From assembly GCF_003334255.1 (NCBI RefSeq), contig NZ_QOWU01000156.1: a stretch of 1,486 bases of DNA; one strand, 5' to 3'. Numbering within the stretch: position 1 is the first letter of the stretch; every line of letters begins with the position of its first letter. This DNA comes from Escherichia coli. Lineage in GTDB: Bacteria > Pseudomonadota > Gammaproteobacteria > Enterobacterales > Enterobacteriaceae. The position numbers and the translations under genes were made by a program. Shown one piece after another: positions 1,386 through 1,486 of this stretch. The notes under the pieces are model-generated. The model saw only the letters and a list, made by a program, of their open reading frames with translations, did no database searches and was not told the origin of the DNA.

Positions 1386-1486
1386 ATGCTGAAACAGCAG
1401 GATATGACCGAAACCGCCAGAGTGGTGTTTAATGAATTAAGTGCCACCGAACCGGCGACAGTCGGGGAGATTGCGCAGAATACTTA
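1386..1486 (+). CDS. Hypothetical protein, 5' end only (first 33 codons, runs off the window); first gene of the Q-dependent late transcript; function unknown
   Basis: ATG at 1386-1388 preceded by the purine-rich AAGGGA (1373-1378) at 7-nt spacing. The frame stays open to the window end, while the two other + frames hit stops within about 20 codons. Codon choice is E. coli-like (ctg, aaa, cag, gaa, acc, ccg, gcg). Translation: MLKQQDMTETARVVFNELSATEPATVGEIAQNT. I do not recognise the protein. Confidence 0.4.
   Translation, partial: MLKQQDMTETARVVFNELSATEPATVGEIAQNT

Follow-up and report, generated by a model that had tools for sequence, protein, structure and literature searches.

A 65-codon gene of Escherichia coli prophages encodes a predicted minimal winged-helix protein and, from comparison of its copies, appears to belong with a structured leader RNA and a phage adenine methylase gene. 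Its first 33 codons close a 1,486-nt stretch of E. coli DNA (contig NZ_QOWU01000156.1, assembly GCF_003334255.1), called here, at its full length, the window; the leader and the methylase lie beyond the window end. As a sequence, the small gene is already catalogued in public records and in PHROGs, and is uncharacterised. The three-part module—winged-helix gene, structured leader, and non-specific methylase—appears undescribed in the literature searched. The leader RNA, outside the coordinates of the small-gene finding, is the better-supported new feature, and the value of the locus lies in the conserved three-part module, not in the small gene alone.

The open reading frame (ORF) at position 1386 is a real gene and not a chance frame, because its ratio of nonsynonymous to synonymous substitution (dN/dS) is about 0.05 and the full 65-codon ORF is present in an identical prophage. 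In E. coli G1/2 (locus L001, 12287–12484) the ORF spans 198 nt and encodes 65 aa, MLKQQDMTETARVVFNELSATEPATVGEIAQNTYLSRERCQLILTQLVMAGLADYQFGCYRRLQS, annotated as hypothetical protein WP_000917743.1. Comparison with Salmonella, Klebsiella, and other E. coli copies gave dN/dS values of 0.044–0.052 at dS 1.5–3.6. A DNA search with window positions 1100–1486, a query that includes the end of the antiterminator gene Q and the late promoter pR', found related sequence in 2372 of 5426 complete genomes; among the matches listed, 11 complete E. coli chromosomes were 100% identical. A preliminary description of the window, made from its letters alone, had proposed an unidentified gene here, and the gene proves genuine. 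It had also considered that a stop shortly beyond the window might leave only a tiny ORF; the frame runs 32 codons further, to 65 aa in total. The visible 33 codons (MLKQQDMTETARVVFNELSATEPATVGEIAQNT) hold five acidic and two basic residues and no hydrophobic run, in agreement with that description's picture of a hydrophilic, acidic product lacking a transmembrane-like stretch.

The ATG at 1386 is the true start, because in 7 of the 14 diverse copies compared the frame is closed by a stop 2–6 codons upstream of it; phiP27, with a protein about 97% identical, is among the seven. The frame is open in the 5' direction as far as a TGA at 1269–1271, with GTG codons at 1299, 1305, and 1353 and a TTG at 1350; the preliminary description placed these exactly and suggested that the real N terminus could be longer. 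That suggestion fails on the same upstream stops and on the peptides encoded 5' of the ATG, which are unrelated between genera. An A/G-rich block ahead of the ATG is kept in all copies. Database entries of 94–106 aa exist for the gene, and an N-terminally extended form gains 25 bits against its PHROGs family, phrog_331; we rejected a start at the GTG or TTG codons of 1299–1353, reading both the long entries and the extra 25 bits as over-long gene calls in near-identical E. coli phages. A hairpin at window 1386–1399 (TGCTG-AAA-CAGCA) takes in two start-codon bases. It becomes TGTT..AACA in Morganella and in L010-type copies, a change that may be compensatory or may merely follow from the MLKQ codons.

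Copies from diverse phages show that the small gene is tied to the methylase gene and not to the slot after Q, because other genes can intervene after Q, three Q families stand upstream, and N15-type phages place the gene differently. A PF01555 methylase of 336–356 aa lies 72–155 nt 3' of the small gene in every diverse copy examined but one. The set comprised copies from Klebsiella and Salmonella, metagenome copies of 50% and 53% identity, a 42%-identical copy, and those of SfV, phiP27, mEp460, Citrobacter phiNP, Hafnia yong2, and Morganella IME1369_02; only the Klebsiella locus L003, with a truncated methylase, departs from the pattern. The Q proteins upstream of the pair belong to three unrelated families (PF03589, PF06323, and PF06530), and phiP27, mEp460, and a Salmonella prophage carry one or more other genes between Q and the small gene. 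In N15, phiKO2, PY54, and YDC107 the small gene stands just before the late promoter, followed by terminator, leader, and methylase (gp52), and the order small gene–methylase is kept despite the shifted promoter position. Near-identical viral-contig loci with enough downstream sequence carried the leader in 64 of 71 cases and the DPPY motif of the methylase in 62 of 71. The linkage favours a phage DNA-modification module over a host-conversion gene.

In the G1/2 prophage the small gene (12287–12484) and the methylase gene (12635–13693, 352 aa) are separated by about 150 nt of non-coding DNA; tRNA-Ile, tRNA-Arg, a TolA-like ORF, a NanS-type esterase, holin, lysozyme, and lysis protein follow. 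A second terminator, a 7-bp hairpin with a T-run, overlaps the small-gene stop codon (L001 12471–12488). Two loci show decay: at L003 6196–6900 the methylase is cut after about 45 codons and followed by tRNA-like sequence, and in a viral contig (L133, about 3575–3733) an internal deletion has removed most of the small gene, with leader and methylase kept.

The downstream enzyme is a beta-class N6-adenine amino-methyltransferase whose closest solved relatives include RsrI, CcrM, and MboIIA; its ATG has no Shine–Dalgarno sequence. It shares 95.5% identity with the phage 1720a-02 enzyme, and Murray et al. reported that the latter closely resembles M.EcoGII, the adenine methylase without sequence specificity from E. 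coli O104:H4 (PMC5778455). Kinship of the present methylase to M.EcoGII is therefore probable by this indirect route, through the 1720a-02 enzyme. M.EcoGII is silent in normal growth and in the lysogen, deleterious if constitutive, and presumed to be switched on at prophage excision (PMC5778455).

Conservation is strong over the roughly 135 nt that precede the methylase ATG. A covariance model seeded with 13 enterobacterial sequences comprises four helices: a long-range TGGGC/GCCCA helix, two hairpins within it, and one further hairpin. The model recovered the leader in 24 of 26 diverse loci (E 6e-39 to 8e-7), including N15, PY54, phiKO2, Serratia OS31, VHML, two Vibrio phages, and one Aeromonas phage. 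For viral contigs, a loose DNA pattern returned at least 120 stretches; 80 loci were screened with the covariance model and 29 passed, all 29 of them preceding a methylase ORF with the DPPY motif. Across 41 distinct leader sequences, compensatory changes occur at 27 of 33 pairs, the paired share of cells is 85.8% (74% in shuffled alignments, 31–42% with partners slid), and the covariation score is 0.33 against 0.11, with 0 of 500 shuffles higher; the alignments behind these figures were fitted to the covariance model, which favours structure. Compensations are also visible in the raw sequences (GGCTGG/CCAGCC, GGCCAG/CTGGCC, GACCGT/ACGGTC). RNAalifold on plain MAFFT alignments returned the long-range helix only, the covarying arms being misaligned; the covariance model resolved the misalignment. 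An Rfam search of the locus and seven diverse loci gave only tRNAs and sub-threshold isrK and matched neither this leader nor that of the small gene.

The leader may also adopt a second fold, in which ATGGGC pairs with GCTCAT and GGTCACAAGCG with CGCTT..TGATC just before the ATG, hiding the start region. This competing fold is possible in most enterobacterial copies and rests mainly on invariant bases.

Relatives outside the enterobacteria place a different gene in the module. In Vibrio ST2-1pr, Vibrio Valp1, and Aeromonas PhAER-1, a Com-like zinc-finger ORF of 36–41 or more aa with two CxxC pairs lies between leader and methylase. Both Vibrio ORFs, the only ones tested, match phrog_6417, and one also matches phrog_13819 (Com or translational-regulator PHROGs). 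Both Vibrio phages also have a hairpin over the methylase AGGAGG, 3' of the Com-like ORF and just before the methylase start codon. The layout leader–Com-like ORF–methylase matches com-mom of phage Mu. In Mu-like prophages Com genes precede, and Com pairs with, the non-specific adenine methylases Hia5, Hin1523, and Nme1821, and control like that of Mu mom has been proposed there (PMC3299994).

The 65-aa protein falls in phrog_331 (E 1.8e-37; residues 1–64 on profile positions 35–98), annotated as function unknown, together with SfV orf47, phiP27 L23, mEp460 gp52, and N15 gp51. These relatives have 63–75 aa, and each lies immediately 5' of a phage PF01555 methylase unit; the SfV and phiP27 proteins are 95–98% identical to the present one and differ in nothing of substance. 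N15 gp51, phiKO2 gp51, and PY54 ORF59 are distant members: N15-type copies are 25–26% identical, N15 gp51 matches phrog_331 at E 5.7e-28, and hhalign of N15 gp51 and PY54 ORF59 against the family alignment gave probabilities of 85–87% (87% for N15 gp51). The family is narrow and almost exclusive to Enterobacterales, with 341 matches at 90% clustering and 66 representatives at 50%. Its N terminus (MLKQQDMTE) and helix 3 with the following turn (RCQLILTQLVMAGL) are invariant; two subfamilies can be told apart by helices 1 and 2 and the wing.

AlphaFold2, given an alignment of 20 family sequences, predicts with high confidence a minimal winged helix of three helices (residues 9–16, 26–33, and 37–49) and a beta-hairpin wing (strands 53–56 and 59–62), at a predicted local distance difference test score (pLDDT) of 92 and a predicted template modelling score (pTM) of 0.79. 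Foldseek matches reached template modelling (TM) scores of 0.6–0.82 (top 0.79 in PDB and 0.82 in BFVD; E 1e-3 to 1e-2) and included MarR/OhrR, IclR, Rrf2, the SelB RNA-binding domain, Z-DNA-binding domains, MotA, and dimerisation domains of O-methyltransferases. Pfam gave a weak TrmB match (PF01978, i-E 1.3e-3, 19 bits), MarR_2 at 0.017, and comparably weak HTH_24 and DprA_WH. The best NCBIfam match, Lrs14, scored 13 bits against a cut-off of 90, with no family near its cut-off; PADLOC gave no meaningful match and no anti-defence family of note, and a sequence search of solved structures returned a single match at E 0.27. The protein has only two cysteines (C40 and C59). Its grand average of hydropathy is −0.19, and its longest hydrophobic run, LILTQLVMAGLA, is helix 3 of the soluble domain.

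In phage lambda the S holin gene is the first after the terminator tR'. The small gene occupies the same first slot—Q, pR', and tR' precede 1386 in this prophage, as the preliminary description had it—but its product is soluble and without a transmembrane segment. We rejected identity with a holin or lysis protein on the winged-helix prediction and on the holin annotated elsewhere; the description's own view that this is not a holin stands, and its reservation that the ORF might turn out to be the N terminus of a known holin or lysis protein falls away, the gene being no part of a lysis protein. The lysis genes it proposed to look for downstream are there: a class II holin at L001 17841–18056, about 5.5 kb on, then lysozyme and lysis protein.

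We tentatively read the small protein as a regulatory or accessory partner of the methylase, Com-like or controller-like, and rate this reading somewhat short of an even chance. The module would be a variation on the Com-Mom and controller-protein theme with a different fold, for which the regulatory case is circumstantial. In lambdoid lysogens pR' is constitutive and its transcripts stop at tR' (PMC7547250). The small gene should be transcribed late by Q-modified polymerase, because it lies on the same strand and 3' of Q, pR', and tR', an arrangement that calls for no promoter in between. In the uninduced lysogen, polymerase reading through tR' would meet the second terminator after the small gene and then the leader, which perhaps holds the methylase start closed. 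On induction, Q-modified polymerase would pass both tR' and the second terminator; the winged-helix protein would accumulate before the methylase and could then act on the leader RNA, the DNA of the module, or the methylase itself. The methylase, harmful to the host when constitutive, would be made only in full late transcription, and phage DNA would be heavily adenine-methylated before packaging.

Such a scheme would matter beyond one prophage. The cassette lies between Q and the toxin or lysis genes in Stx-type and other lambdoid prophages of a large share of E. coli genomes. DNA modified by M.EcoGII can withstand many restriction systems, and the enzyme does harm when mistimed; holding the methylase off in lysogens and releasing it on induction would explain the crossing of restriction barriers. 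The small winged-helix protein and the structured leader are both candidates for methylase control, and the control module, once worked out, would offer a compact protein-plus-RNA example beside Com-Mom and the controller proteins.

Within this partner reading, Com-like control at the RNA level is possible though improbable. The specific form it might take, to which we give equally little weight, is that of an RNA-binding translational switch acting on the leader of about 135 nt, with an unrelated fold in place of the Mu Com zinc finger. The leader would then be an undescribed four-helix RNA that gates translation of a non-specific adenine methylase in lambdoid, N15-like, and Vibrio/Aeromonas phages. 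A riboswitch-like leader with two competing folds is also conceivable.

Two known systems frame the comparison. In phage Mu, the very small com gene lies 5' of a late, host-damaging DNA-modification enzyme, Mom, whose translation start sits in structured RNA. The present locus resembles this in having a tiny gene directly 5' of a late, host-damaging methylase with structured RNA at its start. Unlike Mu Com, the small protein is a winged helix, has no CxxC...CxxC zinc finger, and finds no Com match in PHROGs or Pfam; a terminator and 150 nt separate its gene from the methylase, with no overlap. It also differs from the Com-like genes, which lie 3' of the leader, in lying 5' of it, and most of its family members are acidic. 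The C proteins of restriction-modification systems are small helix-turn-helix proteins, encoded just 5' of modification genes, that time expression after entry or induction; they are Xre-type dimers acting on palindromic C-boxes and chiefly delay the endonuclease. The small gene shares the arrangement of a helix-turn-helix-type protein 5' of a DNA-modification gene, but its product is a winged helix, no C-box-like palindrome lies upstream, and no endonuclease stands next to the methylase. TrmB, MarR, IclR, and Rrf2 regulators have the same fold of three helices and beta-hairpin, with weak profile similarity. Unlike TrmB-type regulators, the present protein is a bare domain that ends at residue 65 after the wing, without dimerisation helices or effector domain.

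Several observations weigh against a partner role. Phage Eeyore, Serratia OS31, VHML, and several viral contigs carry leader and methylase with the small gene absent, so the methylase gene can persist without the small protein. By itself M.EcoGII is active both in vitro and in vivo (PMC5778455). Conserved adjacency could come in part from inheritance of one mosaic block. No palindromic operator is conserved upstream, and the conserved non-coding block ahead of the gene (window 1324–1360) occurs once in 24 kb of prophage, not above chance. What Foldseek returned are winged-helix matches of a generic kind, at E values no better than 1e-3 to 1e-2. Most of the members checked are acidic, unusual for a nucleic-acid binder: isoelectric points of six members put four on the net acidic side (4.7–6.1) and one at 7.7, with the mEp460 subfamily basic at 9.6. 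In the literature searched, no paper dealt with the small protein, phrog_331, or a regulator of M.EcoGII-type genes.

The alternative that survives best, itself unlikely, is a free-standing DNA-binding transcription factor with targets elsewhere in phage or host, next to the methylase through one mosaic block. It would account for the NCBI name "TrmB family transcriptional regulator", for the fold with its MarR-, IclR-, and Rrf2-like matches and the weak TrmB, MarR_2, and HTH_24 profiles, and for the near-invariant helix 3 (RCQLILTQL) with basic residues beside it and in the wing. A terminator on either side makes the gene a self-contained unit. The 1324–1360 block, which reads CTTGCTG-N12-AGAGTTAY..GT.TGTCA across copies and persists where protein identity falls to 42%, might serve as a weak promoter of its own (TTGCTG, 17 bases, TATTGG; general form TAYNNK); the same block lies 5' of the gp50–gp51 pair in N15 (L103, about 1190–1225), where a promoter must exist, and in phiKO2 and PY54. 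A moron would have a promoter of its own and a terminator after it; here the terminator is present, the TTGCTG-N17-TATTGG element is promoter-like, and the scan between tR' and the ATG at 1386 found no consensus sigma-70 promoter. Against a free-standing factor stand the lack of any dimerisation or effector domain and of any repeated or palindromic site, and a methylase linkage that survives to 42% identity and, in N15-type copies (about 25%), a shift relative to the late promoter.

The same block could act as RNA, as a strand pairing with the start-codon region. A duplex of the block with GACATGCT (GRCATGCT at the start codon) would have 7–9 bp at about −10 kcal/mol and is possible in most copies; no covariation was found in it, and the small-gene leader (1267–1400) folds no better than its shuffles (z −0.02).

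Less probable again than a transcription factor is a protein-binding accessory that binds the methylase as inhibitor, chaperone, or targeting factor, or that blocks a host nuclease attacking adenine-methylated DNA. The net acidity of four of the six members checked would fit, as would the tight linkage to the methylase, the hydrophobic residues L42, I43, and M49 exposed on helix 3, and the best Foldseek E-values, which fall on dimerisation winged helices of the S-adenosylmethionine (SAM)-dependent methyltransferases, such as RedM, DsyB, PigF, and SibL. These matches are weak and generic, however, PADLOC offers no anti-defence family of note, the methylase works alone, and phages retain it after loss of the small gene. 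The preliminary description suggested a moron after tR', host-conversion cargo like the toxin genes of Stx phages, and this is very improbable: the gene does follow tR' here, is terminator-flanked, and is widespread in E. coli prophages, but its product lacks any signal peptide, transmembrane segment, or toxin-like domain, the gene goes with the methylase rather than with the slot and occurs in N15-type plasmid prophages too, and the stx genes of phiP27 lie further downstream, after the tRNA genes.

Coordinates of the features are collected in Table 1.

Table 1. Features of the window and of the adjoining module (window positions unless a locus, L, is named)
Feature	Position	Strand	Basis or remark
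3' part of rusA Holliday-junction resolvase gene	3–341	+	ORF list; RusA family endonuclease annotation in the identical E. coli G1/2 prophage
Q antiterminator gene, 273 aa	338–1159	+	two PF03589 Antiterm domains, E 1e-26 and 6e-22; annotated antitermination protein
Late promoter pR' (candidate)	1165–1204	+	−35 TTGATT 1165–1170; extended −10 TGgTAAATT 1184–1192; pause element AACGAT 1199–1204
Intrinsic terminator tR'	1242–1263	+	stem CCCGCC/GGCGGG 1242–1257, T-run 1258–1263; terminator scan
Chi sequence GCTGGTGG	1295–1302	+	in leader of small gene; sequence
Conserved block CTTGCTG-N12-AGAGTTATTGGTGTGTCA	1324–1360	+	non-coding, 5' of small gene
Shine–Dalgarno-like AGGGA	1374–1378	+	7 nt ahead of ATG 1386–1388; sequence
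First 33 codons of 65-codon winged-helix gene (phrog_331; predicted fold)	1386–1486	+	gene end at window-equivalent 1583
Structured RNA leader	L001 12504–12640 (window-equivalent 1603–1739)		about 135 nt directly before methylase ATG
Leader copies elsewhere	L103 1875–2006 (N15); L109 1320–1456 (VHML); L111 403–533; others		
Com-like ORFs	L111 528–638; L112 540–665; L114 from 529		

Upstream of the small gene, the candidate pR' was read from the sequence and from likeness to the lambda promoter, which we take to be TAAATT ... AACGATGGG; the consensus promoter scan left it unscored. RNA of 1199–1266 folds at −21.9 kcal/mol (z −2.6). The transcript from pR' to tR', about 65 nt (window 1199–1263), corresponds to lambda 6S RNA and to the small RNAs StxS and IsrK. 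In the window Rfam gave no match to it; sub-threshold isrK matches occur in Serratia OS31 (L105 1715–1776) and PY54 (L106 1287–1362).

The upstream Chi lies within 130 nt before the small gene in 65 of 80 related viral-contig loci. A second Chi on the same strand, again GCTGGTGG, lies at L001 12513–12520 within the first hairpin of the methylase leader, so that two Chi sites bracket the small gene. The second is retained in Morganella and in the short intergenic hairpin of L010 and L011.

Between Q and the small gene, the Salmonella prophage (L006 5424–5843) and mEp460 (gp51, L017 2861–3277) carry an ORF of 138–139 aa with a lipoprotein-type signal (LVGCAG), which looks like a separate moron. 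The G1/2 prophage is laid out like Stx-type phages. The phiP27 order is small gene (L23), methylase (L24), ileZ, argO, and stx2e; where phiP27 has stxAB after both tRNA genes, the G1/2 prophage has a 142-aa ORF annotated TolA (L001 14174–14602), with the NanS-type esterase next.

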